This document shows, one piece after another, positions 14,355 to 50,140 of a DNA stretch of 64,000 bases. Where the stretch lies: the UHGV virus genome UHGV-0180032. One strand, given 5' to 3'. Source of the stretch: a virus. The translations under genes were made by a program, and so were the position numbers. How positions within the stretch are numbered: the first letter of the stretch is position 1; the number at the start of each line of letters is the position of its first letter. Under the pieces are notes generated by a model. It was not told the DNA's origin. It searched no databases and saw nothing but the letters and a program-made list of their open reading frames with translations.

Positions 14355-14371
14355 ATAGGAGGTAACCATAC

Positions 14372-31089: not shown

Positions 31090-31238
31090 TGATTACTCCA
31101 ATTAATTCACGGTCAAACGGACGTTCAGGGTATAGAACCCACCCCGCCATTGTCTGCCGGTAACTTGAAACTCAGCAGTAAACCCATTCGATTTACTCGA
31201 TTGTTGTGTAATAGCCGTGCTACCACCGGAGGGTTTAT

Positions 31239-31445
31239 TTACCTTCCCCCCGCTCCTTTACTACAGCTACCACTGCACGCCCAGCTACAACTACCGTTAC
31301 AGTTATAGTGAGTTAACGGTAATCCCGCCAGGTTATTCGTTGAGGACACCGTACCTTGGTTAGCGATGTAGTTATTCGCGTCTGTGGTTTTAATGTAACC
31401 TTCAACCTGACCGACTCTGTCTCGAATATTTTTGAGGGAAATCAC
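31239..31445 (-). CDS. Cys-rich precursor-like peptide 1 (68 aa)
   Basis: GTG start after aggaggtga SD; N-terminal leader-like region MISLKNIRDRV...; C-terminal NCNGSCSWACSGSCSKGAGGR. Confidence 0.6.
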   Translation of the reverse strand: MISLKNIRDRVGQVEGYIKTTDANNYIANQGTVSSTNNLAGLPLTHYNCNGSCSWACSGSCSKGAGGR

Positions 31446-31455
31446 TTCTCACCTC

Positions 31456-31851
31456 CTATCGTCCTGTACACGACGAGCAGCCACCCGTACAGCTACTGGA
31501 GCACGATGCTGTACAGCCGCCCGTACAAGTGCCCGAACACGCATTAGCGCACCCACCCGAACAACTCCCCGAACATCCTGAACAACTACTGGAACACCCT
31601 GACGTGCAGTTTGCAGAGCATGAAGAACCACAACCACCAGACGCGTTCCCTGTACAACCACCAGAGCAACTCGAGCAGGTAAAGGAACACGTGCCCGCAC
31701 AATCATAATGCGCACGATTCCGACCACCGAACAGGTCCGCGTTATTCGTGGCCTTATTGCGGATGTAGTTCTGTACACCTGTGGTGTTTTTCAGCGCGAT
31801 ACTATCGACGTTATTAAGACGTCTTACTAATTCAGCTAATCCGACTGCCAT
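31456..31851 (-). CDS. Cys-rich precursor-like protein 2 (131 aa)
   Basis: SD ggggga; leader-like MAVGLAELVRRLNNVD...; long core with Cys every 3-4 residues ending CTGR; alternative-frame ORFs over the same DNA judged spurious. Confidence 0.65.
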   Translation of the reverse strand: MAVGLAELVRRLNNVDSIALKNTTGVQNYIRNKATNNADLFGGRNRAHYDCAGTCSFTCSSCSGGCTGNASGGCGSSCSANCTSGCSSSCSGCSGSCSGGCANACSGTCTGGCTASCSSSCTGGCSSCTGR

Positions 31852-31860
31852 TTCTTCCCC

Positions 31861-32253
31861 CTATCGTCCAGAGCATCCGCCGGAGCAAGCACCCGAACAG
31901 TTATGCGAACAACGCCCAGTACAACTTCCGGTACAGGTACTTGTACAACTGCTAGAACAGGCCCCCGAGCAACCGGAGCATCCTGAACAGTTGCCCCCAC
32001 AGGACGAAGAACAGCTACCCACGCACGACGCTGAACAGTTTCCTGAACAGCTCGAGCAACCGTGAGTACATCCGTTAGAACATGTCCACGAACACGCTCC
32101 CCCGCAGTCTAAACGCGAAGGCGTCCAACCGGAAAACGAATCTGCTGCGTTATGCGCTTTCGATGCGACCTGCGCATTGACACGAGGGCCGGTAGCGACT
32201 GTATTTTCTACCGTTGTTAACCGATCGCGCATTTGTTTAACACTAATCGCCAT
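31861..32253 (-). CDS. Cys-rich precursor-like protein 3 (130 aa)
   Basis: SD aaggaag; leader-like MAISVKQMRDRLTTVEN...; Cys-periodic core ending CSGR. Confidence 0.65.
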   Translation of the reverse strand: MAISVKQMRDRLTTVENTVATGPRVNAQVASKAHNAADSFSGWTPSRLDCGGACSWTCSNGCTHGCSSCSGNCSASCVGSCSSSCGGNCSGCSGCSGACSSSCTSTCTGSCTGRCSHNCSGACSGGCSGR

Positions 32254-32318
32254 TACGCTTCCTTAAAATTAAAATAGAGGAGGAACCAGCCATAAGCATA
32301 GTTCCTCCTGTAATTAAA

Positions 32319-33524
32319 TTATTTCGTACCCGCTTCCGCCTGTACGTCATCACGAGACGTCAGGTTAGCGTTAACGTGTACAGCGGCCTGAACCACACCA
32401 CCGTATCTCTTGTGGAGATAACCGCTGTGCGGGTTATCTGCCGCGATGTGGTTTTGTAGGTTCTGGTTCGCTTGACTGATTGCGTTCGTGTTATTGTTAA
32501 CCTGCTGTTTAAGCGCATCCAGGTTCTGTTGTACCTGATCGATTTTCTGATCGGTTTCTTGACCCTGTTGCTCTAACGCGGCAACACGCTGAATAACCTG
32601 ATTCAGTTTTGTGTTTAAATCGTTGATGCTCTTTTGCAGTTGTAACACTAACGAGTTCAGGTTCGCTAACGCTAAAGCCATTTTCTGGTAGTTTTGAGCA
32701 ACCACGTTAAGTTGGTCGTTCCACGCTTCCAGAGAGTTGACAACAGCGTCAATACGTTTACCTAAAGCTTCGTCTGCTTTCTTCAGTGCATTGATTTCCG
32801 TAATCGTTGCATCGATAGCAGACTGGACGTCACGAATAAGCGCACGGATTTCCGTTTCTGTTAACCCGTTAACCTGATGGATATCAAGATGGTGAACGTT
32901 ACCGGTTGCGTTGATGTGCGCATTTAAAGCGTCTAAGAAGTCATTTTTCAGGCTTTCTAAAATCGCTTTAATGTTCTCTAACTGTACCGCGTCACCGGAA
33001 CTGATCGCGTCTTTAATCCCCGCCAATACGGTGATGATATATTCAAAACCGTAGATGTCACCCACGTCTTTATACGTCGGTGCAGACGGGAATGTATCCG
33101 GTACGTTACGCAAGTCTTTAAACGCAATCGTACGGTTATCGAGGTTTAACTCAGCAATCGCCTGTTCGATAGCCACAATGTTCGCAGACTGTGGACCACC
33201 AACGACCTGCGCAGATACCGTAATATCTGTTGGAATCGCTGTGTTAGTGACCACCACCGCCATAACAATCTCGCGGTTTTTAGTCAGCTTTTCATAAGTC
33301 GGGTGTGCAAAAATCAACTCATAATCGGTACCACGTTCGTAGGTTGCATCCGGTCGGTTAGCAACGCGTAAACGGAACGTGTCCGCAAAGAACGGACCAT
33401 CAGGAAAAGCAAAAGCACGGTTTACTTTACCTGTACCTAACGTAATCTGACGCTCCACAGCGTTAGACGTTAGCGTGCCCGTTAAATCTAAAGGATATTG
33501 ATAAACAATGGAGGCCATGGCCAC
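32319..33524 (-). CDS. fibre-like coiled-coil protein (401 aa) sharing the N-terminal module of the giant proteins
   Basis: N-terminal FPDGPFFADTFRL...GTDYEL; long Gln/Asn/Leu-rich coiled-coil segment. Confidence 0.65.
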   Translation of the reverse strand: MAMASIVYQYPLDLTGTLTSNAVERQITLGTGKVNRAFAFPDGPFFADTFRLRVANRPDATYERGTDYELIFAHPTYEKLTKNREIVMAVVVTNTAIPTDITVSAQVVGGPQSANIVAIEQAIAELNLDNRTIAFKDLRNVPDTFPSAPTYKDVGDIYGFEYIITVLAGIKDAISSGDAVQLENIKAILESLKNDFLDALNAHINATGNVHHLDIHQVNGLTETEIRALIRDVQSAIDATITEINALKKADEALGKRIDAVVNSLEAWNDQLNVVAQNYQKMALALANLNSLVLQLQKSINDLNTKLNQVIQRVAALEQQGQETDQKIDQVQQNLDALKQQVNNNTNAISQANQNLQNHIAADNPHSGYLHKRYGGVVQAAVHVNANLTSRDDVQAEAGTK

Positions 33525-33558
33525 TCTCCTTTATTCGAGACGTCCTTGTCCCGAGTCA

Positions 33559-36500
33559 TTAAGATGTAAACATAAGATTGAACTGGAGTTTGTCGATATC
33601 GCGAGTTTCTGCCGGATTCACGGCATCGTACGCGGTCGCTACGTAAACGGTTAGCGTACCGTTCGCGTAAGACGATTTCACCGGTGGGTTAGTTCCGGAC
33701 TGACCATCTCGCACAATGAGTGTAGGTTCACTTGGGAGATTGTCAAACTGACCCTTAACCGCTTTATATACCAAACCCGATTGCGCAGCCAGTTCAGTGT
33801 CCGTAAAGACAAAGAACGGTGTGTCGATATCAGCCTGTTTGATTGTAGTACCAGACTCGACGTCAATCAACTGTACCGCCCCAAACTTCGTACGATAACT
33901 TCCATACTCGTTCTTCGGAATAACGAACGTGACATGAACACGAACCTCCTCGGCGGGTTTAAACCCACTGTGCTCTTTTTCCAGGTACTGGTTGGCGGTT
34001 AACGTTACCGTTTGTTCAGTCATCGTACCACCGGCCTGGTTTATTGCATACCGAGCTTCAACAATACCGGTTGGTGCAGCAAGTCGCAGTTTCAGAGCAC
34101 GATTCGCCGTTCCTGGATTACCTGGCACCTGAACGCGCAAACTCAATGTTAGGTAAGCATTCGTTCCGGTAGTCGGTTTCGTATACGCACCAATCCATTT
34201 CATGTTCGCAGACGCTGCCTGCGTGTTCTCAGAAGCAGTGGCTGTCGCAATGTTAGCAGCTACCGCTTTCTGCCAGAATTGGTCAGCGCAGTTCTCATAC
34301 GCTACCCTGGCCACGCTCTTATAACCCGAATACGTTTCCTGAATTGGTAACTTAGGACGCGTCGTAATGCCAGACAGTGAACCCCATTTCTGACCGTCAA
34401 CATACCCTTCACCTTTTGACGCAGACGCCGTAGGTGCTTTAACAGGCTTGTTAACCAGCGTTAATAGAGGACCCGTCTTTCTGTCAAACGCTGCTGCAAC
34501 ATCATGTTGGTCGATAATCGCTGCGTGGTCTTCCAGTTCTTTCACACGGCCCAAGCGTTTTACTTTGTCGATACGGATATCCGTAATACGGTTGGAATCA
34601 GTGGTTACTGTCCCGACGAACAGTCTCGTTGAAGTATCAGCTAACTGCTCCAAACCGATACGGTATTGCGCAGTAGAACCCGACACCTCAGCGTGCACGT
34701 AGAACGTCTGGTTAGCGTGGTTAGACGGGAATTCGCTGCTTAAGTCCACAGACCACGTTGGGAGCGTGTAACTGCTGCTACCGAAGTCTAATTTGACTTC
34801 TTCCGTCAAATATAGAATCCAGCCTTCTGCTGTCTCCACACCGGCAATAATAACAGCCTGACCTTCGGTTGAGAACGTCGTGTCGTTAACAAACTCTGCG
34901 GCTGTATACGCGTTACCTGAACAGAAAACACGGTCAGCTTTAGAGTAAATCAACGCCATCTTGTCCCAATCACCGGCACCCATAAAGCAGCCTGATTCTG
35001 GTCTATGTGCAGGGGCCATCTGTCGTAACTGTGATTTACCTGCAACGCGTGTCCAACCTGAACCAGGGTCGAAGGTATATTTCGCAGCGTAGCCCAGGGC
35101 GTTTAAGTCCCCGATATTTCGGGTAGTTAACGTATAAGGTAGCCAGATACCGAAGTTAGTTCCATCCACAGATGCAAAAATAGGCTGTCCCACGCGCCGC
35201 GTTTTACCACCCCCTTCTTCCCTCAAAGACTGATAACTTAAACCATAATCGAGGTCTAAGAACCAGTCCACCAACTTAAAGGTAGCGGAGTTGAAACGTA
35301 AGTAGCCGTTCTCTTTAGATGGGCTCACCATGAAGTAATAGATGTCCAGAATTCGACGTCCGTTACTTGAGGTTTTCATGCACGAAACTTGCAACAAGTC
35401 AAATTCGCACACGGTGTTGATACCCAACATCCAAAGAGCAAACAATGCATTACCGGTTTGATGGGCAGCACTAATACGTTCGTTCGCGTATCCGTTCGCT
35501 TCACCGGAAGGCGCACCGTCGACGATCATCCGAATCATTTTCTGCCGATCGGCTTCTTCTAACGTTAAACGTTCGGAGGACAACGCGAAATTACCGTAGA
35601 TGTTGCGATACGGGAACGTTTCTGCTTTGGTCAAATACCAACCGTTTAACTGTCCATGACGCTCCTCAGGGATCATACACGCAGCCATACAGCTAAGCTG
35701 CTCGTAAAGCGTCGCATCAACTTCACGACGGTTGTTGTTCGGACCGTACCCACTATACCCAGAAACATCGTAAGGTTTGTTCGGATCAACTTCCACTTCG
35801 ATCGTGTAACGGTTACGAGGGTTCGATAACCAGACCTTATTCGAACCACCAATCCCTACTGGATAAGACAAACCGATGGTGTAAATGGAGCCACGGCCTT
35901 TATCCCAGGTAAACGTTCCTTCGCCCGAGGTGTTGTTTGGGTTATCGTAACGCAGATAATCGAAAAGCTCTCTGCCTTGTGTACTCTTAATAGAAACATT
36001 AGGCATTTGGTCCGCATCGGCAATTTGCCAACAGGAAAGCATCATTCCTGTACCGTTGGGTTTAGCATACGTCGCGAAACAACGGTTGTTTGCCTGGCCA
36101 CCACCCCACTTACGATTGGTTCCTACAGTTGAACCATCTGCGAACGAGAGTGTAGTAGTAGCATCAGCCTTGATGGGGAAGCGTTCGCGGCCTTCTAACG
36201 TAACCTTGCCCGTCAACGTATCGATTGTAAAACTTGTTGCCCATTGAAGGAAATTAATCGTCGTACCGTCGGCCGCTGCAAACCACACGGTAGGCATATG
36301 GTTCACACGAATCACGCTATCGCGCACAGCACACGCGTGGTTACATTCTGGACCGTGAACAAAGTTACGCCCGATCGTCCATTTAGCACGACCCTCCGGT
36401 GTGAGATATGTAAAGAATTGACCCGTTTGCGACTCTTCGGTTTTCTGACCAATACGCAAGCAGAGGTTATCTCCGAATTGTCCCATCTCGCCGGTTAGAG

Positions 36501-38745
36501 TTACACGTTCAAATTCTAACGTAGTGTTAGTAGACAAATCGGCCTTACGTAGACGCCAAGCTGCTACGGCGTAAGCGGAGTTATTTACCGTTGAACGGAG
36601 AAGATAAACGTAGTCCTCAACCAACACGACATCGTCAGCTTCCGGCCACGGGTTCCAGGTTTGTTCCACAGTACCACTGGGGTTGCCGTTACGGTACACG
36701 GGCATCGTAACGCGACATACCACCGTGTGCTTAGTGTGGTCCATCGAGCCATTAAACAGCACCAAATAACGGTTATTGTCAGAACCCAGGCAAATAATCG
36801 CTTCCTGGCCACCGATCAAAATAGCTTTTAGGGTCACTCCAGGATATTTACTCATCCCGGCAGGGTGATATTTCACTGAGGTCTGCTGCGGATTTACAAA
36901 CGCGTTTGACGTGTCAATGTCAGCATAGCCGTAATAAATAGCTTCCGTACCCGGCACGCCGTTAGAACCGTTACGGAGCGAATAAACCTTACCCTGCTGA
37001 TACCCAACAACCCCTTTCTGGTAAGACTGGTTTTTGGTGTAGCCTGCGTAGTTGCCTAACGCTGGGATAGGTAAGAAGTTTTTATTACCGAATTTCGCAC
37101 CGCCTACTGTCCATGCCGGTAAGATGGTATTCAGTTTATCAGAGACCTTCTTAATCTCTTTTGCGAACAACCACCCTTGACGTGACGTGACAGCTTTATC
37201 GTTAGTGGTGTCAATTGCATCCCACAGCTGTAAGATACCATCAACCGTTGCACTACCAATCGGGACGTTATCCAAGTCAGCAGTGGTGTGGGTGTGCGTC
37301 TTCAAACTCTTGTTTTTCAACACGTTCGTTAACGCTTTTGTCACAGGCTTAGCACTCGGTATGGTGTTATCCATCTTATCGATACCGAAATCGGTTTTCG
37401 TTAAGGTTAACACCATGTTGTCGCCCGTCTTAACAAACCCTTTACCGTTAACGGTATAGTCATCGTCAACGTACAAGTCCAACCGGTCTTTTAATTCAGT
37501 TACGGCTTTCTGGGAGATAGCAGTACCTAACGCCGCAGACGTAGAGATATTCGTAATCGAGAACAACCCATAAACTGATTCGGACGCTGTGGGAATATTC
37601 GCGTTTAACGTGACCGGGTTAGTCTGTTTTGCGGTACCGTACGGTTTTACTGTGTCTGACGCTTTGAAATACGCGTTTGCTTCAAGCAACGTTACTGACG
37701 TCAGATACATGTTCACCATTTCTGGTGTAACCAGGTACACAGAGTTATAAACCGGTGCTAATACGTCCTGCTCTGACCCTGAGTGAACCCAAAGTGTATT
37801 CAGACCCGCACTGAATTCAACCGCTAAACCCGATTCGTTGTTGTCCTGGTCTGCTTTAATCACTAACGGTTGTGGCGAGGTAATTAACCACTTATCACCA
37901 CGAATACTGATGATGTGACCACCTGACGTTTTAAACGTTAATTCATTACCGTTCGTGGTGCCCCATCGACCGTAAACGGTGCCGAGGGCTTCACCCATTA
38001 ACTTGTCAACGTCGGATTGCTCAATACCCGCTGACCCCATCAGCGTAGCCAATTCGTCAATCGTTAACCCAAACGCTTTTGTGGCGTCAACCGCACGTCC
38101 TAATACGGGGAGAGCAGCAACGTCATCAGTGGTATAGTGATGCGCGTTAGGATTACGGTGATGCTGGTATAATTCTTCGTCGAAAACCTTTTTCCCGTTC
38201 TCGTAAATCAGGTTAGTGACTTCACTGAACGCAGCATCTAATTCCGTAGAACGTTTGATGATTTTCTTGCGAATGTCTTCTAAAGCCTTAACGACCTCGT
38301 CCCTCAGAATCGCTTCTTCTAAGTTAGCAGGCGGGTCGATAGGCTGAATAACCGGCGCATACGCCATTAGTTCAGACCAGTCCACGTTACGTGGGTCTTT
38401 CAGGTCAGTACGAACTAAGAACTTCCCGATTTCAGATTGCGGTACACGGTATTGACGTGCTACCCCTAAAATCTCGTATTCGATTTCTGTTGCGGTAAGC
38501 AACATAAACCCGCCGTAAATCTGATCCTGCTCAGCTTCGGCGAGTTCTTTAAAGTAATAGCCTAAATAGTAGTCCAACCCCTCAATCAGAGTACGACGTC
38601 CGTTAGGCGCGGTATCGTCGGCTACTGTGAGTTTTAATCCGATACGATAAAAAGGTCCTTCGGGTGGAATGACCACGTTAAATCGGTTAGGGTACGTCGC
38701 TGTGCTTAGCGTACCGTTAAACTGCGCCGCGTCTTCTCTCGGCAT
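33559..38745 (-). CDS. giant tail-fibre/tailspike-like protein (1728 aa)
   Basis: N-terminal PPEGPFYRIGLKL...GLDYYL module shared with neighbours; long ORF. Confidence 0.7.
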   Translation of the reverse strand: MPREDAAQFNGTLSTATYPNRFNVVIPPEGPFYRIGLKLTVADDTAPNGRRTLIEGLDYYLGYYFKELAEAEQDQIYGGFMLLTATEIEYEILGVARQYRVPQSEIGKFLVRTDLKDPRNVDWSELMAYAPVIQPIDPPANLEEAILRDEVVKALEDIRKKIIKRSTELDAAFSEVTNLIYENGKKVFDEELYQHHRNPNAHHYTTDDVAALPVLGRAVDATKAFGLTIDELATLMGSAGIEQSDVDKLMGEALGTVYGRWGTTNGNELTFKTSGGHIISIRGDKWLITSPQPLVIKADQDNNESGLAVEFSAGLNTLWVHSGSEQDVLAPVYNSVYLVTPEMVNMYLTSVTLLEANAYFKASDTVKPYGTAKQTNPVTLNANIPTASESVYGLFSITNISTSAALGTAISQKAVTELKDRLDLYVDDDYTVNGKGFVKTGDNMVLTLTKTDFGIDKMDNTIPSAKPVTKALTNVLKNKSLKTHTHTTADLDNVPIGSATVDGILQLWDAIDTTNDKAVTSRQGWLFAKEIKKVSDKLNTILPAWTVGGAKFGNKNFLPIPALGNYAGYTKNQSYQKGVVGYQQGKVYSLRNGSNGVPGTEAIYYGYADIDTSNAFVNPQQTSVKYHPAGMSKYPGVTLKAILIGGQEAIICLGSDNNRYLVLFNGSMDHTKHTVVCRVTMPVYRNGNPSGTVEQTWNPWPEADDVVLVEDYVYLLRSTVNNSAYAVAAWRLRKADLSTNTTLEFERVTLTGEMGQFGDNLCLRIGQKTEESQTGQFFTYLTPEGRAKWTIGRNFVHGPECNHACAVRDSVIRVNHMPTVWFAAADGTTINFLQWATSFTIDTLTGKVTLEGRERFPIKADATTTLSFADGSTVGTNRKWGGGQANNRCFATYAKPNGTGMMLSCWQIADADQMPNVSIKSTQGRELFDYLRYDNPNNTSGEGTFTWDKGRGSIYTIGLSYPVGIGGSNKVWLSNPRNRYTIEVEVDPNKPYDVSGYSGYGPNNNRREVDATLYEQLSCMAACMIPEERHGQLNGWYLTKAETFPYRNIYGNFALSSERLTLEEADRQKMIRMIVDGAPSGEANGYANERISAAHQTGNALFALWMLGINTVCEFDLLQVSCMKTSSNGRRILDIYYFMVSPSKENGYLRFNSATFKLVDWFLDLDYGLSYQSLREEGGGKTRRVGQPIFASVDGTNFGIWLPYTLTTRNIGDLNALGYAAKYTFDPGSGWTRVAGKSQLRQMAPAHRPESGCFMGAGDWDKMALIYSKADRVFCSGNAYTAAEFVNDTTFSTEGQAVIIAGVETAEGWILYLTEEVKLDFGSSSYTLPTWSVDLSSEFPSNHANQTFYVHAEVSGSTAQYRIGLEQLADTSTRLFVGTVTTDSNRITDIRIDKVKRLGRVKELEDHAAIIDQHDVAAAFDRKTGPLLTLVNKPVKAPTASASKGEGYVDGQKWGSLSGITTRPKLPIQETYSGYKSVARVAYENCADQFWQKAVAANIATATASENTQAASANMKWIGAYTKPTTGTNAYLTLSLRVQVPGNPGTANRALKLRLAAPTGIVEARYAINQAGGTMTEQTVTLTANQYLEKEHSGFKPAEEVRVHVTFVIPKNEYGSYRTKFGAVQLIDVESGTTIKQADIDTPFFVFTDTELAAQSGLVYKAVKGQFDNLPSEPTLIVRDGQSGTNPPVKSSYANGTLTVYVATAYDAVNPAETRDIDKLQFNLMFTS

Positions 38746-38839
38746 CGTAAAGACTCCTACTTTTAAATAAAATGGATACCCCTCCCCATTACAGGGAGGG
38801 GTTACCTACGGACACACAACTGCCCGCAGGCAGCCTGTC

Positions 38840-41800
38840 CTAAGTACGATCCCCTAACTGCTTCCCGTTAAGTTCTCGTTTCAGTACAGAAAGTATCCAT
38901 TTCCACGCTTTACTCGTGATGTGGTACGGATTGCGTTTCTCCATTAAGAACTGCTTTTCACCGCTACGCAGTTCGAAGCTCTGCGCATTAAGCTGATCCT
39001 GACGAGTGCTTTGCTCATCGGTCACATCTAACGAACAGGTAAAGTTAAGCTCGTAACCTTCAGGATTATTACCCGGCGGGTCTAAGACAATATAGATGTC
39101 CTGACCTACACGTAAGTCGGTGGCCGTGATACTAATCGCTTTACCTACGTCAGCGCTGGTCGACAGAGCAAACTCCGCACTGTCCGTAGACGCTAAGAAT
39201 GGGTCTTTCCCTGCGTCACCGATAATCACCTTACCTGGCCAGTTACTTTTTATCGTTCCCGTCACTTTTGCAATTCGGTACTGTTGTTTATCGGCACCTT
39301 GTGCAAAACGGAGAATGAGTTTGTGACGATAACGACTTGCAGCAGCCTTAGTCGTACTCCACTCGTTGTTCCAGGAAGTGTGCAGTTCGTTGTTCTTCGC
39401 CATCAACGCACCGCGAGACAGCTTACGATCAAAGAACTGCGCAGGTAACTGCCCATCATGAGAAACCGCAACGCTTCCCTGACCAGTTGGCAAGGCAATG
39501 CTCTCCGTAACGCGATATTTCTGACTAATCTCATAAGTCGCAGGGTCAATCACAGACTGACTATAATCAGCGTCTTTGTTATCAGCCAAATACCCAACGG
39601 ATGAATCCAGATACGACTCAAACAGCGAACGTAAGTAATGATACTTATCAATGTTGATGTTGTTCGTAACCGGATCAATCAGCGCATGGCTAATCGTTAC
39701 TCGGCATTTCGCACTCAGTTCTTTAAACGACAACCCTATTCCGTCACCGGTGAAATAATCCACTAAGTCGAACGGGAATTGAATTTCCAACTGACGTTGT
39801 TTAACTGTCGTCGTCCCAAACTGCGAGAACGACAACGCTAAACGCAGCACACGCGTACTTACGTTATAACGGTAACGAATCATCCCACGAGGTGCATGGT
39901 TTGCAGAGATTTTATCTCGAGCGGCACCCCAGCCAATCAAATCGAGAATCGCGGGGTTGGTTTCTTCACCGTTGAACAACACGTCCTTAAACGTTGCATT
40001 CACCGCTGTTTCCCCAGACTCTTCCATTACCAACGGAATGTCAGTAACGTCTGAAACTGAACGGGAACCAATCCCCAACTTGCACGCTTTGGCCGTCAGA
40101 TCGATACGTACGTAACGGCGTTTAACACTCGCCCCTTGCGTTGACGTACACAGCACCAAATCCGGTGCAGCAGTAAGTGCTTGTGTTCCACCGACGTCGT
40201 CAACGTCAAACACAAACGAACCTTCGAATGTCGGTGCGTTGTTTTCTTTCGGGTTAAACGGTGTAAACCAGCAATACGGTGTAGCGCCTTCAGGTATCAC
40301 AACGTACTGAAGACTGGACTTCACGTTTTGGTTGTGTGCGTAAGTATAAAGACCACGACTGACAAGATGGAAAACATCACCTGTACCGGCTGCTAACGCT
40401 TTCCTAAAGATACACGCTCTCGGTTCGGCAATGGCACGGTTTAATAACGGCAACCGTGGGTTATCCGTTAACGCCCAGTCCACAGAACTGAGTCCGTGTG
40501 CTTTACGCGTGGCGATGTGTCCACTAACCTCGGCACTTTTCCCGAAATCAAACGTGGTTTCGAACCCTACCGTTTTATTCGCGTAATTCTCACCAGCAAC
40601 AATATCAACGTAACCGATATAACCGCGTTCAGGATCAACCGCGACGCTCTGAATCGGTTCAGCACGCGAATACAGAGAGCCTGTGAGCATGTTAACGTAC
40701 AGATAGTGACGAATCCCTACGTGCGTGGTAACAAACTCCTGGAGAAGCTCTACGCGCGTTTCAGGGCCACTGAAGTAAACGGGGTAATCCCCATCGTAAA
40801 CTTCAAACTGTACCGCTGCGGACTTAGCCGTATCGCTACATTCGGCTTTAACCGCTATTGTGTAGTTTTCAACGTCTGATGACGTTTCGTACACTGCAAC
40901 GAGCGGAGACTCGCCTGACGCTGCCAGGTTACCGTTAATGTAAACCGTAACCGGACCGCCGCCCGCAGCATAAACCCAGAGCTTTGATTGGTACGCCCTT
41001 ACACGCGTTTTTGCCAGTACCGTAACCACTGACTGGTCACCCATCTGAGTAGCGGTTTTACCTACCGCAACAGACTGGAATCCCATCAACGGCGGTTCTT
41101 CAATACCTGTCCAGTTGATTCCCGTACCGTTACTCACCTTACCCGTAGGCCAAGTCAGTTCAAGCTGGTTGTTAGGTGAGAACCAGTTAAACATCGGGGT
41201 GGTTTGCAGGTCAATCGCACCAGTAACGGTACTGTCGCCTTTCGTCCCGTCCAGCAAATAGAAATATTTCAAATCCTGAACAGAGATTGACGTACCCTGG
41301 CTATTAAAACGCCAGTCCGCACCTTTCACAGCAGCAAAATCGGTTACCGTACCTTCTTTCGCGTTTGCAATTGCCGCAGCGACCACATCTAAACGTGCTG
41401 AAAGCTCTTTTAGGATGTTCGGTACCACCGCTCGGTTTTCAACTAAGCCGTTCTGGTTAGTTGCGTAACGACCAATACCGTAAATCGTCTGCGAGGCTTT
41501 ATAAATGCCTAACTCTGACCAGTCGTGATGGTGACCGACATCTGCTAAACCACTAACCGAAGCATTCAGTGCGGTAGACAACGGTTTGTCAAGGTCTGCG
41601 GTGTTATCCGCTTGCCCTAATCCCAGGTCAGCTTTCGTGATTGTCCTGGAACCGTCGTTCATCGGCTTACCGTTAATCATGGTCGTTTTAGTCACGTACC
41701 CTGATAAGTCGGTTGAATACGGCGTTAATGACGCAGGAGTTGCTGCAACCCCAACCGTTTCTGTGCCTTTACCGGTTTTAAGCTTAACAACACCTTTTTC

Positions 41801-43024
41801 AGCGGTGGTCGCTTTCGTCGGGTCGATAGTCCCCACGATGGGATCGGCACGAGAACCTTTACCGGTAAAACTAATCCCGTTACGGCCTTCGATATACACT
41901 TTGGAGTCATCAGGATCGCTACCGCCACTCCCGCCAGCATCAGGGTCTTGCTGATACTCCATCAGCGCTGTGGTGGTCAACAACGGGTTACCGTTCAGGG
42001 TGAGTTTGTTCATCCCTAAAGCGTCACCGGTTGACTCGATGCGTAAGGTGTTTTTACCCGCACGCCAGTTAATGTAACGCCCCGCACCTGTGCCTTCCAG
42101 ATGCCCTACCGCTAATACCACAGAACCGTTGGATTTTAACGTAAAGCCATCATTCGCAAAAATGATTTCGGATTCACCGTTTTTCGAACGGAATTGTGCG
42201 CGGTTTCCAGACACCGTACAGTTAAACACGCCCCGTACTTCCGAAGAAATCCAGTGGGAGATATACGTGTCAATAACTGACTGTGGTAAACGAAACGCTT
42301 TCAGTTCATCCGTTAACGCTTTCAATTTTAACCCGTACGCCATAAAGGTGTCAGGTGTTTTCAGGTTAACGGGATGGGCATTAATTTGTGCGCTCGTGGT
42401 TTCGTGCGGGTTCGTCGCGGCGATATGTGCTGGGTAGTTAAACGCTTCAATTTCTTTCCCCAACGCAGTCACTAGCACTTTAACTTCGGCTATTTTATCC
42501 TTAATTAGCTGGTTAGCGTCATCGGTTTTCAACTCAATATCGTGAATCGCTGACGCTAAGTATTTTTTGTTCAGCAAATCCGCCCAGGACGTTGCCGCAG
42601 GCGTAGCTGGGTATAACGACGGTCTACCGTCTAACAACAGCCAGTCTGCACTGACTGGGTTATTCAGATATTTCACCAACTCGTCGAGCATGTCAACGAA
42701 CGGGTCGTAGAACGTACCGCCGAGCATTTGTCCTTCAAAGGTTACGATCCCTTTGATGGATGGGTTGATAAGGTGTACCCCACAATACACGTTGGCTGCT
42801 ACCGAGTCATCCAGTTCCGTCAGCTGATATTGCAGTTCGTAGTCCACCCCACGGCTCAGTGGGGTGGTTGAACCTGGTTGTCTGACGACTAAGTCTTCAA
42901 AGAACGGGCGATGGTCTAAAATCACCACCCGGTCATTGTTGTTTTCTGACCCGATGATACGCTCCTCTAAGAAGTGATTCTCGGTTTTCGTCCCCCGAGG
43001 ATCGTAAGGATACGCTTTCATCAA
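38840..43024 (-). CDS. giant tail-fibre/tailspike-like protein (1394 aa)
   Basis: N-terminal HRPFFEDLVV...GVDYEL module; long ORF. Confidence 0.7.
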   Translation of the reverse strand: MMKAYPYDPRGTKTENHFLEERIIGSENNNDRVVILDHRPFFEDLVVRQPGSTTPLSRGVDYELQYQLTELDDSVAANVYCGVHLINPSIKGIVTFEGQMLGGTFYDPFVDMLDELVKYLNNPVSADWLLLDGRPSLYPATPAATSWADLLNKKYLASAIHDIELKTDDANQLIKDKIAEVKVLVTALGKEIEAFNYPAHIAATNPHETTSAQINAHPVNLKTPDTFMAYGLKLKALTDELKAFRLPQSVIDTYISHWISSEVRGVFNCTVSGNRAQFRSKNGESEIIFANDGFTLKSNGSVVLAVGHLEGTGAGRYINWRAGKNTLRIESTGDALGMNKLTLNGNPLLTTTALMEYQQDPDAGGSGGSDPDDSKVYIEGRNGISFTGKGSRADPIVGTIDPTKATTAEKGVVKLKTGKGTETVGVAATPASLTPYSTDLSGYVTKTTMINGKPMNDGSRTITKADLGLGQADNTADLDKPLSTALNASVSGLADVGHHHDWSELGIYKASQTIYGIGRYATNQNGLVENRAVVPNILKELSARLDVVAAAIANAKEGTVTDFAAVKGADWRFNSQGTSISVQDLKYFYLLDGTKGDSTVTGAIDLQTTPMFNWFSPNNQLELTWPTGKVSNGTGINWTGIEEPPLMGFQSVAVGKTATQMGDQSVVTVLAKTRVRAYQSKLWVYAAGGGPVTVYINGNLAASGESPLVAVYETSSDVENYTIAVKAECSDTAKSAAVQFEVYDGDYPVYFSGPETRVELLQEFVTTHVGIRHYLYVNMLTGSLYSRAEPIQSVAVDPERGYIGYVDIVAGENYANKTVGFETTFDFGKSAEVSGHIATRKAHGLSSVDWALTDNPRLPLLNRAIAEPRACIFRKALAAGTGDVFHLVSRGLYTYAHNQNVKSSLQYVVIPEGATPYCWFTPFNPKENNAPTFEGSFVFDVDDVGGTQALTAAPDLVLCTSTQGASVKRRYVRIDLTAKACKLGIGSRSVSDVTDIPLVMEESGETAVNATFKDVLFNGEETNPAILDLIGWGAARDKISANHAPRGMIRYRYNVSTRVLRLALSFSQFGTTTVKQRQLEIQFPFDLVDYFTGDGIGLSFKELSAKCRVTISHALIDPVTNNINIDKYHYLRSLFESYLDSSVGYLADNKDADYSQSVIDPATYEISQKYRVTESIALPTGQGSVAVSHDGQLPAQFFDRKLSRGALMAKNNELHTSWNNEWSTTKAAASRYRHKLILRFAQGADKQQYRIAKVTGTIKSNWPGKVIIGDAGKDPFLASTDSAEFALSTSADVGKAISITATDLRVGQDIYIVLDPPGNNPEGYELNFTCSLDVTDEQSTRQDQLNAQSFELRSGEKQFLMEKRNPYHITSKAWKWILSVLKRELNGKQLGDRT

Positions 43025-43034
43025 AAAATTCTCC

Positions 43035-46000
43035 TTAATCGCGAATGATTACCGCCTGCACTTTATTGTTGGTGTCGATAAACGACATTACGCGCTCCTT
43101 GTTAAGATAAGGAGGTATCGGCAACGCAGCATAATCCGCCAGGTTGTTATTAAACTCGGTTGCCACTAACGCATTAAGCGTTTCAGGGTCTGAGCTTGTC
43201 CCGGCCAATTCCACGACGCGTACACGATTTAACGAGGAGTAGTTGCTGATATAATCCAACAGCGTACCGTAGAGTTTATTCCCGGTTATGCTGTCCGCCG
43301 TAGAGCGGATATTGGCACGCACTTCGTCCTCATAAAGTCCCCCTAATCCGTAGTAAATAGGGGTGTACGGATCGTTAACGATAGGCGCGAGGTTGAACCC
43401 GGTTAAACGGTCGGTCAGCGAGATTTTCTGCGTAGTACCACCTGCCGCCGTACAGCTTACGTATTTATCTGCCGCAGACAAATACACCACAATAGTGTAA
43501 ACAGTACCTGCTAAGGTCAGCGTTGCGTTAAACGTTAATTCGTTATTCGCACCACGCGTGTGGGTAAATGTCACATCAGGTTGTAACGTACTCCACGGTG
43601 CTGGGGTAACACGTTTGGTCGGCGTGAAGCCTAACACCACAGATCTCCCGTTACCGAAGTTTAAACCAAACCCGGCGTAACAATACTCACCGTTGCTGTC
43701 AGTTAAACGATAACCACGGGTGATAAGTAACGACAACCGCATAAACTCGTCATCGGTATTTTTCCAGCAACCCAGGATGGTTTCTAGCACCGTACCGGTT
43801 TTTGCGTTGCTTTCGGTTTCCCAACTGACTCGCATCCCCGTATTGTTAAATACTGGGAACAGGTTGTGGATAAACCCGTGAACGTTATCACTTACCCCTT
43901 TCGCATCAAACACCCACTTCGACGCAAGCTGGTCGTATTTCACACCGTCGAGTGCTTTATATCCGCCGCCAACCACATAACGCCAGTCTGCTTCACCACG
44001 CACAACCGCTTGAAGTCCAGAAGCCCAGCAGGGCGCACCTACTGTTAAATTGCTTAACCCCAGCACTGCACGTGAAGCAGAACGCTGAATGTGTGCGTTG
44101 TCATTAGCGACATGGTCTTTCAGCTCACGGAAATCCCCTAACCGTGTCACGTTACGTAGTTCAGTAACGAACACTTCAGAAAGGTCGTTAATACCGATCA
44201 ACCCCACGCGCGTCATGATATCCGTTTCAGCCTGACTGTAGCTGTCGTGAATAATGTACTTCGCTTTGTTATCGACAATGTCAACAAAAATCCCTGCGTA
44301 AACTTCCTTATTCAGATTCGGGAAACGTTCGGTAACGTTAACCGACATCAACGGTACGTTGTACGTTTCACCACCAATGAAATACGTGGAAGCAGGAAGT
44401 GTCACCAGGATTTTGTCTTTAACCGTAACGTCAATTAAGTCGTTACCGGACTTACCAAAGCGAATAATGTCAACTCGCGCACCCGAGTCAACCCCGCCGA
44501 CGGTATTCTCCAGTTTTTCAATCTGGGAAGTCTGCGCCATCACCACACTACTATCGAGTGCTAAAGTGACATCATCCACATCCAGACCGAACTTAATCAG
44601 ACCCCGTTTCGTGGTGTCTGCGTTTTCAACACCGAACACAGAAGACGGGTGTTGGTGAACCTTCGGTGAGTATTTGTCTAACTCAGTCTGCTGTGCAACA
44701 GAAATCGGCAAGTCGAGGTCCGGGGTATTCGCAACATTACCTAAACCAAAGGTAATTTTGTCGATAGTCACCGAACTGGTAAGCTGCATGTCGTTGATAT
44801 ACGACTTGGCAGCAACTAACTTACCGGTAAACTCTGCGTCTAGTTTTTCAATTAACGCGGGTGTAGCTGCAAGGTTTTCAGCCGTACCGAATTCGTCCGT
44901 TAACTGCCAGCAGGCTAACGTTGTGACGTCGTTGGCAACCGGAAGGATAAACGTTGCGACAAACGGTGATGCTTTAATCCCGCTGCCAGTAAGTTCCACG
45001 GTAGACGTCGACGCACCGTAGAACAGACCTGTACCGCCTGCGGTATTACCCGGCAAATACGGACCGACCGTAGTGGGGTCTAAGAGTTTCTTACCACGCC
45101 ACAACAGTCCACGGTCATCGGGGTATAGCACAAGCTGGTTATCGCCTGCCTGTAACGTAACAGGGTTGTTACCCGCATTAACATCGGTGGAGCCTTGACC
45201 GATAAACTTAATGGACTTCGGATCAACGACGAACTGGGCACCTAAACGTTTTTCGTCAACTACACCAGGTGCTTTCTTAATGGTAACCGTGTTACCTTTG
45301 TTTTGCGAACTAATAGAGACGCCGTCAGCAACATTATTGATCAGCGATTTAAAGTGATACCGATTCTCTAATGCTTCTAACGCAGAGTCCATGTTATCGA
45401 AGTTAATCCGGGCGCTATACGTTTTACCGTTTACGGTAATAACGGCGTCAAACACGTTCCCTGTACGCTTCAGTTGAAAACGCAGCGTAAAATCCCCATC
45501 CGGTATTGCTGGATCAGGAGCTTGAGAAATATACCGAACTGACGGTACCGGACTCCCGTAACCGTGCAACGACAGTTCGATAGTAAGAGTACCACCCCAG
45601 ACTTCACCGAAAATCTCTACGTACTTACCGGAGTTACTACCGGGATTTTCGTAGAAACGTAAACCGGCCCTACCGACTGCCTCATTACCAGACGCTGTTT
45701 TACGTCCAGTAACAATAAAGTCAATATCTTGCAGGTTAGCGGGTACCGCATTAAAAGAAGCACTAAATCCATTCTTCGTTCCTGTGTAACGAAGCGCGCC
45801 GTGATACGTGCGGCCTTGACTAACATAGCTTTCGCTAAAATAAGGACTCACGTATTTAGACATCGAAACCGGATCAACTTCTGTCGTGAACGAAGTAAAA
45901 CCGGGCAGCGTTCCAATGGTTCCGTCGGCCGTTTTCGTAGTTGACGTGCGCAGTAGTTTCTTTTGCGCAGCCAATGTTGCTTGCGTTGGATACTTAGCAT

Positions 46001-47357
46001 TAACATAATCTGTTAACTGCGGCTTCGTTTTTCCGTAAGCTAACGCTGTATCCGTCGCAATACCATTCAACTCTAACGCACGGATCGGGCCCCACGTATC
46101 GTTGTGCGGGTTGTCCTTACGTGTAACGTGTTCGTGCGCAGGTGCGTTGCGATAGAGCTGTTCTACTAACTGATGGTACTTAACGATTAGCTGATAAACG
46201 TCATTACTTACGTCTGCTTCTGGCGCACCAGGTAACGCAAGGAATTGAGCGTAATCGTTTTCAGCCGCCCACCAGTTTAAGTTAACGTTGGTTTTGTATT
46301 TCAGCCACTTCGCAACATCCGTTTTGGTGTAACCTGCTGAAAATTCGTCTGGCGGTGTGTCAACGTTAAAGGTGTAGTCCATGGACTGTTTGTTAGTCGT
46401 CACCTCGATAACGTATACACCGTTACCCGGTTGACGAACAACGCTAAACGTTAACTCGCCTTTTAATTCGTCGTCGGTCAAACCGTTGATTAACGTATAA
46501 TCATAATCGGTCGAACCGCTGCCTAACGCAACCGTCAGTCGTAGACCGATTTTACGTTGTTTTAATTGGAGACGAAGGATACTTGCACCACCGTTCGCGT
46601 AGCACAGCATCCAATCGATTTGTTCGTTCGGGTTAATACTCCCCATGTTCGGAAAAATAGCCGGGATACGGTATTTCATCGACAGGGAATATTCATTTAA
46701 CGTGGTGGTTTTGTACGTAACGGAGAAACGACGTTTAGCGGTGTTGTAAGTATACCCACCTTTGTTGTCGTACGTTGCGTACTGTTCAGATGTGATAACC
46801 GTACCATTAGCACGGTGTTCGATATCTAACGTGTTACGTGCAATCGGGTCTACCCGATTCACCACGTTACCTAACGAATCACCTAAGCCTGCAATGGCCT
46901 GCATTAATTCCAGTTCACCTTTCCAGTTTTCCCAGTCGAACTGAATGTCAACCGGTGGAAAGTAAACGTCGCCGATAACGGTATCCCATTGACACGCAGA
47001 CGGGTATTTATCTTTATTGAGTTCGCGTTCTGCGGTAATCTGTTCTTGGGTCGCTTCACCACAACCTACGGCGTGGTAATCTACCGTGAAATTCGATTTG
47101 TATTTGTCGTTAACAATCCAAATCATCCCGTGCACGAGATAGGCTGTGCGCAACATACCGGTCTCGTACGGGTGTGTAATAACGTAATCGTCGCCTAAGG
47201 TCAGTATTTTGCCGCCGCTCTTGACCACCAGGGATGTGGTGAAAAAAGGGGCGTGGGCAGGTACCAACATTCGGTACTTCGTACCAATGACGGCGACCGC
47301 TTCACCGGTTATTTTATTCCCCGGTTCTTTGAAGTGTGGGTCTAGGACGACAGCCAT
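43035..47357 (-). CDS. giant tail-fibre/tailspike-like protein (1440 aa)
   Basis: N-terminal AHAPFFTTSLVV...GDDYVI module; long ORF. Confidence 0.7.
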   Translation of the reverse strand: MAVVLDPHFKEPGNKITGEAVAVIGTKYRMLVPAHAPFFTTSLVVKSGGKILTLGDDYVITHPYETGMLRTAYLVHGMIWIVNDKYKSNFTVDYHAVGCGEATQEQITAERELNKDKYPSACQWDTVIGDVYFPPVDIQFDWENWKGELELMQAIAGLGDSLGNVVNRVDPIARNTLDIEHRANGTVITSEQYATYDNKGGYTYNTAKRRFSVTYKTTTLNEYSLSMKYRIPAIFPNMGSINPNEQIDWMLCYANGGASILRLQLKQRKIGLRLTVALGSGSTDYDYTLINGLTDDELKGELTFSVVRQPGNGVYVIEVTTNKQSMDYTFNVDTPPDEFSAGYTKTDVAKWLKYKTNVNLNWWAAENDYAQFLALPGAPEADVSNDVYQLIVKYHQLVEQLYRNAPAHEHVTRKDNPHNDTWGPIRALELNGIATDTALAYGKTKPQLTDYVNAKYPTQATLAAQKKLLRTSTTKTADGTIGTLPGFTSFTTEVDPVSMSKYVSPYFSESYVSQGRTYHGALRYTGTKNGFSASFNAVPANLQDIDFIVTGRKTASGNEAVGRAGLRFYENPGSNSGKYVEIFGEVWGGTLTIELSLHGYGSPVPSVRYISQAPDPAIPDGDFTLRFQLKRTGNVFDAVITVNGKTYSARINFDNMDSALEALENRYHFKSLINNVADGVSISSQNKGNTVTIKKAPGVVDEKRLGAQFVVDPKSIKFIGQGSTDVNAGNNPVTLQAGDNQLVLYPDDRGLLWRGKKLLDPTTVGPYLPGNTAGGTGLFYGASTSTVELTGSGIKASPFVATFILPVANDVTTLACWQLTDEFGTAENLAATPALIEKLDAEFTGKLVAAKSYINDMQLTSSVTIDKITFGLGNVANTPDLDLPISVAQQTELDKYSPKVHQHPSSVFGVENADTTKRGLIKFGLDVDDVTLALDSSVVMAQTSQIEKLENTVGGVDSGARVDIIRFGKSGNDLIDVTVKDKILVTLPASTYFIGGETYNVPLMSVNVTERFPNLNKEVYAGIFVDIVDNKAKYIIHDSYSQAETDIMTRVGLIGINDLSEVFVTELRNVTRLGDFRELKDHVANDNAHIQRSASRAVLGLSNLTVGAPCWASGLQAVVRGEADWRYVVGGGYKALDGVKYDQLASKWVFDAKGVSDNVHGFIHNLFPVFNNTGMRVSWETESNAKTGTVLETILGCWKNTDDEFMRLSLLITRGYRLTDSNGEYCYAGFGLNFGNGRSVVLGFTPTKRVTPAPWSTLQPDVTFTHTRGANNELTFNATLTLAGTVYTIVVYLSAADKYVSCTAAGGTTQKISLTDRLTGFNLAPIVNDPYTPIYYGLGGLYEDEVRANIRSTADSITGNKLYGTLLDYISNYSSLNRVRVVELAGTSSDPETLNALVATEFNNNLADYAALPIPPYLNKERVMSFIDTNNKVQAVIIRD

Positions 47358-47424
47358 TATCTACTCCTATAGTCCGTGGGCGTCGAGTTCATACTATGAC
47401 TTGAATCTATTGAGGAAAAGAGCT

Positions 47425-48687
47425 GTGACTACTGCTTATCAAGTGCGGCCTGACAGCGCTTTTGGCTTCTCTCGTGAGACCCGTACCTGGGGAGCCATCG
47501 ACGTCACGCAACCCTTAGAAACCTTGTGTTCTGATTACCATATTTTCGAAGTCGGTCTGAGTGCGCTTGGTAGAGACTATACGTTAATTAGCCAATATCA
47601 CCTCGCTGACTTACAAAACCGTACCGATACGTTACAAGACTGGCTGAATGAAAAAGCCGGTGTGGTTATCTCTGCGTTGAAAGACGGTTTACCGACGTTA
47701 GAGTTTGATTGGGCACACTACCAATCGATTAATGCCGATGTTCCAGTAGAAACCTACCTGTGCCCTCCTGGTTATCACTACAGTCAAGAATTCAGTATAG
47801 ACGATGCTGACGACGTTGTGGTGGTGTGTGAAGATAAATGGAAAGACAAGTACCGTAACGGGGTGTTGTACAACATCAACGGACAGTGGGTGCCGCATCA
47901 ATCCGATACTGTTGGTGTACGTTTACCGGGTGCAGGTAAAATAGTACGTCGCGCAGGGACACCGGATATCGGGTGTATGGTCTTTAGTAAATTGGGGAAT
48001 GTTAAAACGTACCCCATTGCTAATTTGACCTTAAACAAACTCGACACCACTCGCGACTATTACTCCACGTTAATGATTTCTTTACCGGAATCTATTACAG
48101 GTAAAACCGTGGGGTTTGTTATCGGGGGATTGATACACTGGTTACCGGTTACTGGGTACTTCTCCGACAAAGCCATTATGGTATCGCTACCGAACTTTGA
48201 CGTTGCGCGTACGGTGTTAGAAACCCGACGTTATTACGACTGGGACAGCATTGGCGTGGGTGATTTGTCATCACCGACCAACGTACAGCGTATCCGTAAC
48301 CCAGAAACGTTAAAGGCGCTTTTAACCCACGAGTCGTCGTTTATCTTTACGGTGGATAATCCGTATCTGGAAGAAGAAGTTGTGGGGGTTTCTCACAACG
48401 CTATCTGGGGGCGTTTATACCTTAAAGATCCTACTGACCCTGATGGGGAAAAACAACTGGGGTATCTGTTAAACCGCTTCGGTAAAACCGTTGCCTATTG
48501 GCCGACGTGGGAAGAAGGAGAATGGGTATTTAACACCACGGAGTTCGACAGTCAAAACTACGTGTTCCGTGAAGCCCGCTGGTATAACCAGAATAAAATT
48601 AACGATGCACAGGCAATCGTAGGGCCTTTCGGTCCCTGGGAAAAAGTCTATTTAGAAATGCATCGTTTCCGTGCAAGAAAAAAATAA
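47425..48687 (+). CDS. hypothetical protein (about 420 aa)
   Basis: Track ORF 47209..48687 trimmed to GTG 47425, because upstream part overlaps the minus-strand giant gene; gagg SD. Confidence 0.5.
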   Translation: MTTAYQVRPDSAFGFSRETRTWGAIDVTQPLETLCSDYHIFEVGLSALGRDYTLISQYHLADLQNRTDTLQDWLNEKAGVVISALKDGLPTLEFDWAHYQSINADVPVETYLCPPGYHYSQEFSIDDADDVVVVCEDKWKDKYRNGVLYNINGQWVPHQSDTVGVRLPGAGKIVRRAGTPDIGCMVFSKLGNVKTYPIANLTLNKLDTTRDYYSTLMISLPESITGKTVGFVIGGLIHWLPVTGYFSDKAIMVSLPNFDVARTVLETRRYYDWDSIGVGDLSSPTNVQRIRNPETLKALLTHESSFIFTVDNPYLEEEVVGVSHNAIWGRLYLKDPTDPDGEKQLGYLLNRFGKTVAYWPTWEEGEWVFNTTEFDSQNYVFREARWYNQNKINDAQAIVGPFGPWEKVYLEMHRFRARKK

Positions 48688-48692
48688 GTAAC

Positions 48693-48734
48693 CTCCTACC
48701 CTCTTAGAGGGTAGGAGTAGCACGTTTTTTTTTT
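48693..48734. terminator. bidirectional terminator between convergent genes
   Basis: 11-bp stem ctcctaccctc/gagggtaggag; T10 downstream on plus strand, T-run on minus strand. Confidence 0.65.
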
Positions 48735-48737
48735 CAC

Positions 48738-48947
48738 TTAGTCTTTTTTGTAGACGATCGCGTTACCGTGCAGTTTGTTGTTACCGGAAATACCGATAAC
48801 TTTAAACGCTTCACCGCCGATCTTTTCAGCTTCGACAGCCAGCTTAGCAGTAACGTCGTCTACGGTGTCACCGAAAGCGCTTACGTTACCAATTTTCTTG
48901 AACTCTTCAGGAATGTGTTCGGCAGAAGAGAATTCTTTAATAGCCAT
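48738..48947 (-). CDS. BhsA/YcfR-like DUF1471 domain protein without signal peptide
   Basis: KIGNVSAFGDTVDDVTAKLAVEAEKIGGEAFKVIGISGNNKLHGNAIVYK closely resembles recalled E. coli BhsA domain; in-frame stop right upstream of ATG; SD ggagag. Confidence 0.65.
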   Translation of the reverse strand: MAIKEFSSAEHIPEEFKKIGNVSAFGDTVDDVTAKLAVEAEKIGGEAFKVIGISGNNKLHGNAIVYKKD

Positions 48948-50113: not shown

Positions 50114-50140
50114 TAGGTCGTTCCTTAGATCGGAAATGTA

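Follow-up and report, generated by a model that had tools for sequence, protein, structure and literature searches.

Organization of the locus

The subject of this study is a row of four consecutive genes, here named A to D, and their divergent neighbour, E, in a 64,000-nucleotide stretch of the virus genome UHGV-0180032 (the whole stretch is hereafter the window). The four open reading frames (ORFs) were found on the minus strand where a first-pass annotation of the DNA had placed them (A 32319-33524, B 33559-38745, C 38840-43024, and D 43035-47357). That annotation took their products for fibre-like proteins with one attachment module and different bodies. It is argued below that they probably encode a set of paralogous baseplate-fibre proteins of a phiKZ-related jumbo phage. 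The listed starts of A, C, and E are probably wrong, as the orthologous proteins point to ATG 33518 (A), ATG 43021 (C), and ATG 47425 (E). With the start of E at ATG 47425 (420 amino acids [aa] and not 47209 with 492 aa), the apparent overlap of E and D disappears. The gene models used here are as follows, with the N-domain classes explained in a later section.

32319..33518, minus strand: gene A, 399 aa from ATG 33518 (GTG 33524 and 401 aa in the ORF list), orthologous to SPN3US gp167 and Asesino gp187; class II gp131-like N-domain, then a long coiled coil
33559..38745, minus strand: gene B, 1728 aa, orthologous to SPN3US gp168 and Asesino gp188; class I N-domain, then a helix, a fibre-shaft module, and a large predicted beta-propeller body
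38840..43021, minus strand: gene C, 1393 aa from ATG 43021 (TTG 43024 and 1394 aa in the ORF list), orthologous to SPN3US gp169 and Asesino gp189; class I N-domain, then a shaft and a variable body
43035..47357, minus strand: gene D, 1440 aa, orthologous to SPN3US gp170 and Asesino gp190; class I N-domain, then inserted segments, a shaft, and a body
47425..48687, plus strand: gene E, 420 aa, divergent from D; homolog of phiKZ gp130 and SPN3US gp171

At the protein level, A is about 77% and D about 51% identical to the counterparts in SPN3US-like phages. On this evidence, the source is an undescribed jumbo phage related to Seoulvirus and Erskinevirus, with Salmonella phage SPN3US and Erwinia phage Asesino as close kin. 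The region shows synteny to Asesino gp177-207 and to SPN3US gp163-186, and the DNA identity to these regions is about 77%, in patches only. Near-identical phages were found in public sequencing runs (Logan assemblies SRR16327195, SRR16327228, and SRR16327204, here L009-L011). The B homolog in these near-identical contigs has 97% identity and represents a cluster of 803 sequences. Among the PHROG families, phrog_2163, phrog_7449, and phrog_8078 match A, B, and C, respectively, over the full length, while phrog_7557 matches D at aa 698-1440.

A common domain at the extreme N-terminus

An independent profile was made only from the N-termini of phiKZ gp131, gp133, gp134, and gp135 and of 201phi2-1 gp216, gp218, gp219, and gp220, and was compared with every stop-to-stop ORF of 60 aa or more in the window (261 in total). 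It matched the N-termini of A (E-value 2e-28), C (1.9e-17), D (6.2e-15), and B (4.7e-4) and no other window ORF, which bears out the common N-terminus proposed in the first-pass annotation. PHROG 2163 also matches the N-terminus of all four proteins (2e-104, 2e-42, 5e-29, and 3e-17), and the BLAST alignments to the N-termini of phiKZ gp131, gp133, gp134, and gp135 are colinear. In a four-way alignment of the N-termini, the P-F and G-x-D-Y residues of the previously noticed motif are invariant. In contrast, the proposed size of about 70 aa was too small; the common unit is about 130-170 aa and is followed in B by a long helix. In an AlphaFold2 model of B 1-620, the N-domain occupies aa 8-128 with a predicted local distance difference test score (pLDDT) of about 90, and the predicted helix occupies aa 142-196. 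This helix is a candidate contributor to a six-helix bundle like the one seen in phiKZ.

33003..33518, minus strand: N-domain of A (E-value 2e-28, profile positions 1-172)
38266..38739, minus strand: N-domain of B (aa 3-160; AlphaFold2 model confident for aa 8-128)
42530..43018, minus strand: N-domain of C (profile match)
46881..47357, minus strand: N-domain of D (profile match)
38158..38322, minus strand: long alpha-helix predicted in B (aa 142-196, directly after the N-domain, pLDDT about 75-80)

Could the N-terminal likeness be a matter of chance or composition among unrelated genes? Pairwise BLAST of the four proteins is significant for only two pairs (A and C, 2e-07 over 226 aa; B and C, 1e-17 over 512 aa). 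In the BLAST comparison of the N-termini, A and B gave 0.37 and the D N-terminus had no match at all. Against this stand the specificity of the profile matches (4 of the 261 ORFs, all at N-termini), the PHROG 2163 matches on all four proteins, and the recurrence of the same pattern in 12 phages, so that a fortuitous likeness can be regarded as refuted. The significance of the N-terminal similarity, on which the first-pass annotation had made its proposal depend, held up in the profile searches.

A search of 1.84 billion representative proteins with the N-domain gave 1250 representatives at 50% clustering, of which 468 had an E-value of 1e-10 or lower. Among the 150 matches listed, the domain starts at residues 1-17 of proteins of 166-1560 aa, with one atypical repeat-like exception. 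The products of A, B, C, and D have the same layout as the gp131 family: a domain at the extreme N-terminus followed by variable C-terminal parts.

The gp130-type neighbour and the known members of the family

When 12 phage loci were searched with a profile of the E family, each gave a single ORF, that of phiKZ being gp130 (1.8e-19). In 12 of the 12 loci, this ORF is the divergent neighbour of the first gene with an N-domain. The window has both elements of the family arrangement, the tandem paralogs and the divergent gp130 homolog. The E ortholog of SPN3US, gp171, is a homolog of phiKZ ORF130 and is an essential, tail-associated protein (PMC5105663).

The genes gp167-171 of SPN3US are direct orthologs of the window genes in the same order and orientation. 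By mass spectrometry, SPN3US gp167-170 are all present in virions, while gp168-170 are absent from tailless particles (PMC5694885, PMC5105663). The latter three have been named "Paralog family C", baseplate or tail-fibre candidates similar to phiKZ gp131; gp167 is a virion protein outside the published family C list (PMC5694885). Sequence comparison thus places A to D in the known phiKZ gp131-135 family, as a fresh example and not a fresh kind of thing. What appears to be new is that the gp167-type protein, A, is tied to the family through its N-domain. In 201phi2-1, gp216-gp220 belong to the same family, have a gp130-like neighbour (gp215), and were all detected in virions by mass spectrometry; GenBank EU197055 annotates gp216-220 as paralogous virion proteins similar to phiKZ proteins.

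For phiKZ, cryo-electron microscopy (cryo-EM) revealed six gp131-like N-domains and a six-helix bundle in each fibre base, beneath gp130 (PMC13250141). The baseplate bears 12 fibres, and the base was assigned as three copies of gp131 with one each of gp133, gp134, and gp135 (PMC13250141). The phiKZ set (gp131, gp133, gp134, and gp135, with gp132, and gp130) resembles the window set in the homologous domain at the extreme N-terminus and in the tandem paralogs adjoining a divergent gp130 homolog. A helix after the domain and a beta-propeller in a distal body, both predicted for B by modelling, may be further likenesses. phiKZ is the one member of the family whose baseplate and fibre base have been imaged by cryo-EM; a like assembly in the window phage would be expected by homology.

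Further common modules and the distal bodies

The first-pass annotation stated that the four proteins diverge completely after the N-terminal segment. This does not agree with the profile comparisons, in which B and C are colinear over about 600 aa and B, C, and D have extra modules in common. The hhalign alignment of B and C spans aa 1-626 and 1-631 (probability 99.8). Other profile-profile alignments join C and D over about 750 columns (98.9), A and C over about 210 aa (97.3), and B 1286-1431 with D 962-1105 (97.6). A colinear fibre-shaft module is common to B 266-489, C 322-521, and D 688-924.

37279..37950, minus strand: fibre-shaft module of B (aa 266-489)
41462..42061, minus strand: fibre-shaft module of C (aa 322-521)
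44586..45296, minus strand: fibre-shaft module of D (aa 688-924)
34453..34890, minus strand: module of B in common with D (aa 1286-1431)
44043..44474, minus strand: module of D in common with B (aa 962-1105)
34546..37128, minus strand: all-beta body of B (aa 540-1400), modelled as one or more beta-propellers
32430..32867, minus strand: coiled-coil region of A (aa about 220-365; coiled-coil type matches only)

The model of B 540-1728 is confident and almost all beta (pLDDT 83.3, predicted template modelling score 0.68). A Foldseek search with this model gave tandem WD40-type propellers and five-bladed propellers of the GH43 and GH32 type. The B body is thus modelled as a generic beta-propeller, compatible with carbohydrate binding or hydrolysis, neither of which is proven. 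The beta-propeller is the fold class of lectins, sialidases, and GH32, GH43, and GH130 enzymes. A depolymerase with a beta-helix fold had been expected in the first-pass annotation; this reading was rejected for B, where Foldseek found propellers and not beta-helices. Pfam recognised no domain in B, C, or D, those of the beta-helix or pectate-lyase type included, and its matches in A are coiled-coil noise. The PDB was searched with A, B, C, and D, both as single sequences and as profiles, and no meaningful match came up, in a PDB copy that has no chain with the gp131 N-terminal sequence, since phiKZ gp131 itself finds only 4GBF. The B propeller region has no sequence match to 4GBF, the C-terminal propeller of gp131.

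A homolog of the B body is found in phage Goslar. Goslar gp26 is homologous to B at profile positions 544-1379 (4.7e-26), and Goslar gp28 matches positions 1298-1378 (1e-06); the compared stretches of the Goslar locus (L005) are 12372-14975 and 11360-11869. Thus, the giant B protein corresponds to several Goslar genes, which may be due to fusion or fission.

Variation along the proteins

Compared with the SPN3US and Asesino orthologs, the identity is 73-86% over the first 100 aa and has dropped to 15-40% by the C-terminal ends of B, C, and D. At the protein level, A has 77% aa identity to its ortholog in SPN3US as well as in Asesino, and D has about 51% to that of SPN3US. The near-identical metagenomic relative L009 is 95-100% identical elsewhere, and its divergence is concentrated in C aa 800-1200. 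From this pattern, the segment of C is a candidate receptor-binding region, and the distal bodies of B, C, and D presumably touch the host surface. The N-to-C fall in conservation and the virion data on the SPN3US orthologs support the proposal of the first-pass annotation that these are fibre proteins with a common attachment module and different bodies.

39422..40624, minus strand: variation hot spot of C (aa about 800-1200; 66-79% identity to L009)
45264..45872, minus strand: insertion in D (about 203 aa, aa about 496-698)

The insertion in D is absent from the Asesino, SPN3US, ChrisDB, and Phobos orthologs. A tblastn search with it against 50,697 phage records gave no match. It is presumably also present in L009, since the D ortholog there is likewise 1440 aa long. 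An origin by duplication of another D domain is unsupported, as the self-BLAST of D for internal repeats found nothing.

Are A to D purely architectural proteins of the peripheral baseplate with no part in host recognition, and is their C-terminal divergence neutral drift? The Pfam and PDB sequence searches recognise no receptor-binding or enzyme domain, and phiKZ gp131 was first localised to the baseplate periphery only. The steep N-to-C conservation gradient speaks against such a role, as does the hot spot of C, with 66-79% identity inside proteins that are otherwise 95-100% identical. Further points against it are the predicted propeller fold of B, as in lectins and sialidases, and the position of the phiKZ fibres for contact with the cell surface (PMC13250141). 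A purely architectural function is very improbable on this evidence.

Two classes of N-domains

The 12 loci were scanned with the N-domain profile, and a neighbour-joining tree of the N-domains was constructed. Each phage has either two or four N-domain genes, which are always adjacent. Two genes are found in Goslar, KpLz-2_45, LucasX, Moabite, and RP12, while phiKZ, 201phi2-1, SPN3US, Asesino, ChrisDB, Phobos, and the window have four. A clade with a bootstrap value of 72%, here termed class II, comprises the A orthologs, phiKZ gp133-135 with the corresponding 201phi2-1 proteins, and, in each two-gene phage, the last gene; the remainder is termed class I. Inside the two classes, the N-domains have mean identities of 0.31 and 0.275, compared with 0.19 from one class to the other. 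A single clade of B, C, and D was rejected (bootstrap 0%). The three class I paralogs are old, and the tree supports no particular order of branching among them.

The same family is laid out differently in different phages. In phiKZ, a single long protein of class I (gp131, 771 aa) is accompanied by three short ones of class II (about 460 aa). In the window, there are three class I proteins, all very long (1393-1728 aa), and only one of class II, which is short. 201phi2-1 has the phiKZ-type layout of one long and three short proteins, with much shorter bodies than those of the window. SPN3US shares the window layout but differs in the distal parts, with only 15-40% identity, and in the D insertion of about 203 aa, which the SPN3US protein lacks. 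Goslar has gp29 with a class I N-domain, gp25 with a class II N-domain, the gp130-like gp30, and gp26, which resembles the B body. Thus, in contrast to the window, Goslar has only two N-domain proteins, and its B-type body is a separate gene product.

Proposed assembly of a composite fibre

The best explanation of these results is that A to D encode the paralogous baseplate-fibre proteins of a jumbo phage related to phiKZ (Chimalliviridae), and that their N-domains co-assemble under E. I would give this reading a probability of roughly 75%. Orthology, N-domain homology, synteny with the gp130 homolog, the extra common modules, and the conservation gradient were all observed, and the propeller fold of the B body is predicted by modelling. 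Each protein would begin with a gp131-like N-domain of about 130-170 aa, with a helix next to it (modelled in B only). By homology with the phiKZ cryo-EM structure, six N-domains from different paralogs would pack round a six-helix bundle and form the base of a single composite fibre beneath the gp130 homolog E. From this base, B, C, and D would run on via the common fibre-shaft module to different bodies that face the host surface and may bind receptors.

Several points weigh against this reading. The structure and the proteomics come from relatives and not from this phage. The fibre composition of phiKZ is called "candidate" by its authors, who placed AlphaFold3 models in maps of 4.4-4.6 Å (PMC13250141). 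The helix after the N-domain was modelled for B alone, and of the four N-domains that of B fits the Pseudomonas-phage profile least well (4.7e-4). For the bodies of C and D, the Pfam and PDB sequence searches gave no fold, and any receptor-binding, glycan-binding, or enzymatic role of the bodies is putative.

The alternative is that A to D form four independent homotrimeric fibres or tailspikes, each plugging separately into equivalent sockets, as in the branched sets of CBA120/Vi01-like phages. Such sets, like that of the Klebsiella jumbo phage phiKp24, consist of side-by-side receptor-binding proteins joined via N-terminal modules and are a functional analogy to the window set. Their adaptor domains are of the T4 gp10-like or XD type and their bodies are beta-helix depolymerases, whereas the B body of the window is modelled as a propeller. 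Different bodies on one shared N-terminal module are the signature of such a set, and the shaft modules have trimeric-fibre motifs and matches to tail-fibre PHROG families. The first-pass annotation also had separate fibres or tailspikes each docking on a common adaptor. This conflicts with the phiKZ base, which mixes six N-domains of several paralogs and offers only two near-identical kinds of site (PMC13250141). Moreover, three or four types of fibre cannot fill 12 sites symmetrically, and the Goslar homolog of the B body is present at only about 9-21 copies per virion. The two N-domain classes are conserved, with at least one member of each in every genome examined, which fits an obligate mixed assembly and not interchangeable plugs. 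Independent fibres are therefore unlikely.

For the co-assembly of the N-domains under E, the two classes allow a more specific scheme, which I propose only tentatively and which is somewhat less probable than its opposite. The fibre base may consist of a class I trimer and a class II trimer, with some lineages having triplicated one of the two genes and so exchanged a homotrimer for a heterotrimer. The gene layouts suggest that phiKZ triplicated class II (three copies of gp131 with gp133, gp134, and gp135), while the SPN3US lineage including the window triplicated class I. If the hexamer is one trimer per class, the three class I proteins and the one class II protein of the window give a fibre of A3 + B·C·D. 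This would be a single fibre with three different giant distal bodies and not three kinds of fibre. The two-gene phages (Goslar, Moabite, KpLz-2_45, RP12, and LucasX) would use two homotrimers.

Indirect support for this scheme comes from the split of the N-domains into two classes, from the gene counts per phage, which fit two trimers, and from the colinearity of B, C, and D in their proximal parts. Copy numbers from Goslar and spectral counts from SPN3US, both crude measures, were also considered. In Goslar, label-free quantification gave median copies per virion of 87 for gp25, 75 for gp29, about 18 for gp30, and about 13 for gp26. The similar copy numbers of gp25 and gp29 indirectly support two trimers, and about 13 copies of gp26 would come to about one B-type body for each fibre. 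The Goslar map did not resolve the fibres (bioRxiv 10.64898/2026.04.21.720040). In SPN3US, the spectral counts per kDa of gp168-170 are 1.08, 1.41, and 1.00, which is about equal among the three and to the 12-copy portal (0.93-1.29), and those of gp167 are 1.45-2.4 times those of gp168-170 in four data sets (PMC5694885).

Neighbouring genes and other fibre-related genes

Directly downstream of A lie two tandem paralogous genes for CxxxC-repeat proteins, followed by a gene for a 295-aa protein and two genes for radical S-adenosylmethionine (SAM) enzymes.

31456-31851 and 31861-32253, minus strand: two tandem paralogous CxxxC-repeat proteins, about 130 aa each
30202-31089, minus strand: 295-aa protein
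29264-30181 and 27940-29274, minus strand: two radical SAM enzymes

The CxxxC-repeat proteins have an ordinary N-terminal part of about 50 aa and then about 80 aa of C-x-x-x-C or CSG repeats, with 15-17 cysteines per 60 aa. They scored 19.5 and 17.6 bits with TIGR04114 (Cys-rich repeat target family), against a cutoff of 20. For the 444-aa radical SAM enzyme, TIGR04115, "radical SAM peptide maturase, CXXX-repeat target family", ranks first in NCBIfam, with an E-value of 2e-36 that does not reach the curated cutoff, and the PapB ranthipeptide maturase comes next. In Asesino, SPN3US, ChrisDB, and Phobos, the CxxxC pair likewise follows the A ortholog, with an annotation that looks incomplete; the pair is absent from the seven phiKZ-type or Goslar-type loci examined. 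By sequence, the cassette looks like a phage-borne thioether cassette of the ribosomally synthesized and post-translationally modified peptide (RiPP) kind, or like one for a cross-linked structural protein tied to the fibre operon. A literature search found no paper on such a CxxxC-repeat and radical SAM cassette.

A second, unrelated fibre system (the first two genes below) and two other genes of interest for fibres lie elsewhere in the window.

5313-8147, plus strand: 944-aa tail protein, preceding the 1541-aa fibre protein
8225-12850, plus strand: 1541-aa fibre protein
26161-26691, plus strand: 176-aa protein with Pfam DUF7941 (3.6e-09)
26761-27435, minus strand: possible fibre assembly factor

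The 1541-aa protein has many tail-fibre PHROG matches, including the T4-type long tail fibre distal subunit, and a C-terminal Peptidase_S74 intramolecular chaperone domain at aa 1447-1503. With the two fibre systems, the phage has at least two kinds of candidate receptor-binding organelle. The DUF7941 family has been proposed to form a peripheral "fibre cloud" in Goslar (bioRxiv 10.64898/2026.04.21.720040); the contig of a relative carries two DUF7941 genes side by side. The product of 26761-27435 is listed as a possible assembly factor from the annotation of the ChrisDB and Phobos gene at or near the same position as a tail assembly chaperone or tail assembly protein.

GC-rich perfect hairpins with stems of 8-11 bp were found at 38778-38802, in the 94-nucleotide gap between C and B, at 48693-48717, just after gene E, and at 49009-49028, about 320 nucleotides downstream of E. 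A scan of 31000-50500 for promoters and terminators gave counts not above those of shuffled sequence, and no operon claim is therefore built on it.

Implications

The four genes and their relatives, annotated as "hypothetical" or "virion structural", can be labelled as gp131-family baseplate fibre proteins, and E can be annotated as the gp130-type docking protein of the fibre set. The giant bodies are modular: in Goslar, the B-type body has a gene of its own, and the D protein of the window has acquired an insertion of 203 aa. The C segment at aa 800-1200 and the predicted propellers of B are the places to seek host-range determinants, and such pointers would be useful if phages of this kind are engineered for Salmonella, Erwinia, or related hosts. 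If the A3 + B·C·D scheme is true, the phage would have an unusual kind of multivalent adsorption organelle, in which one heterotrimeric fibre bears three different heads.

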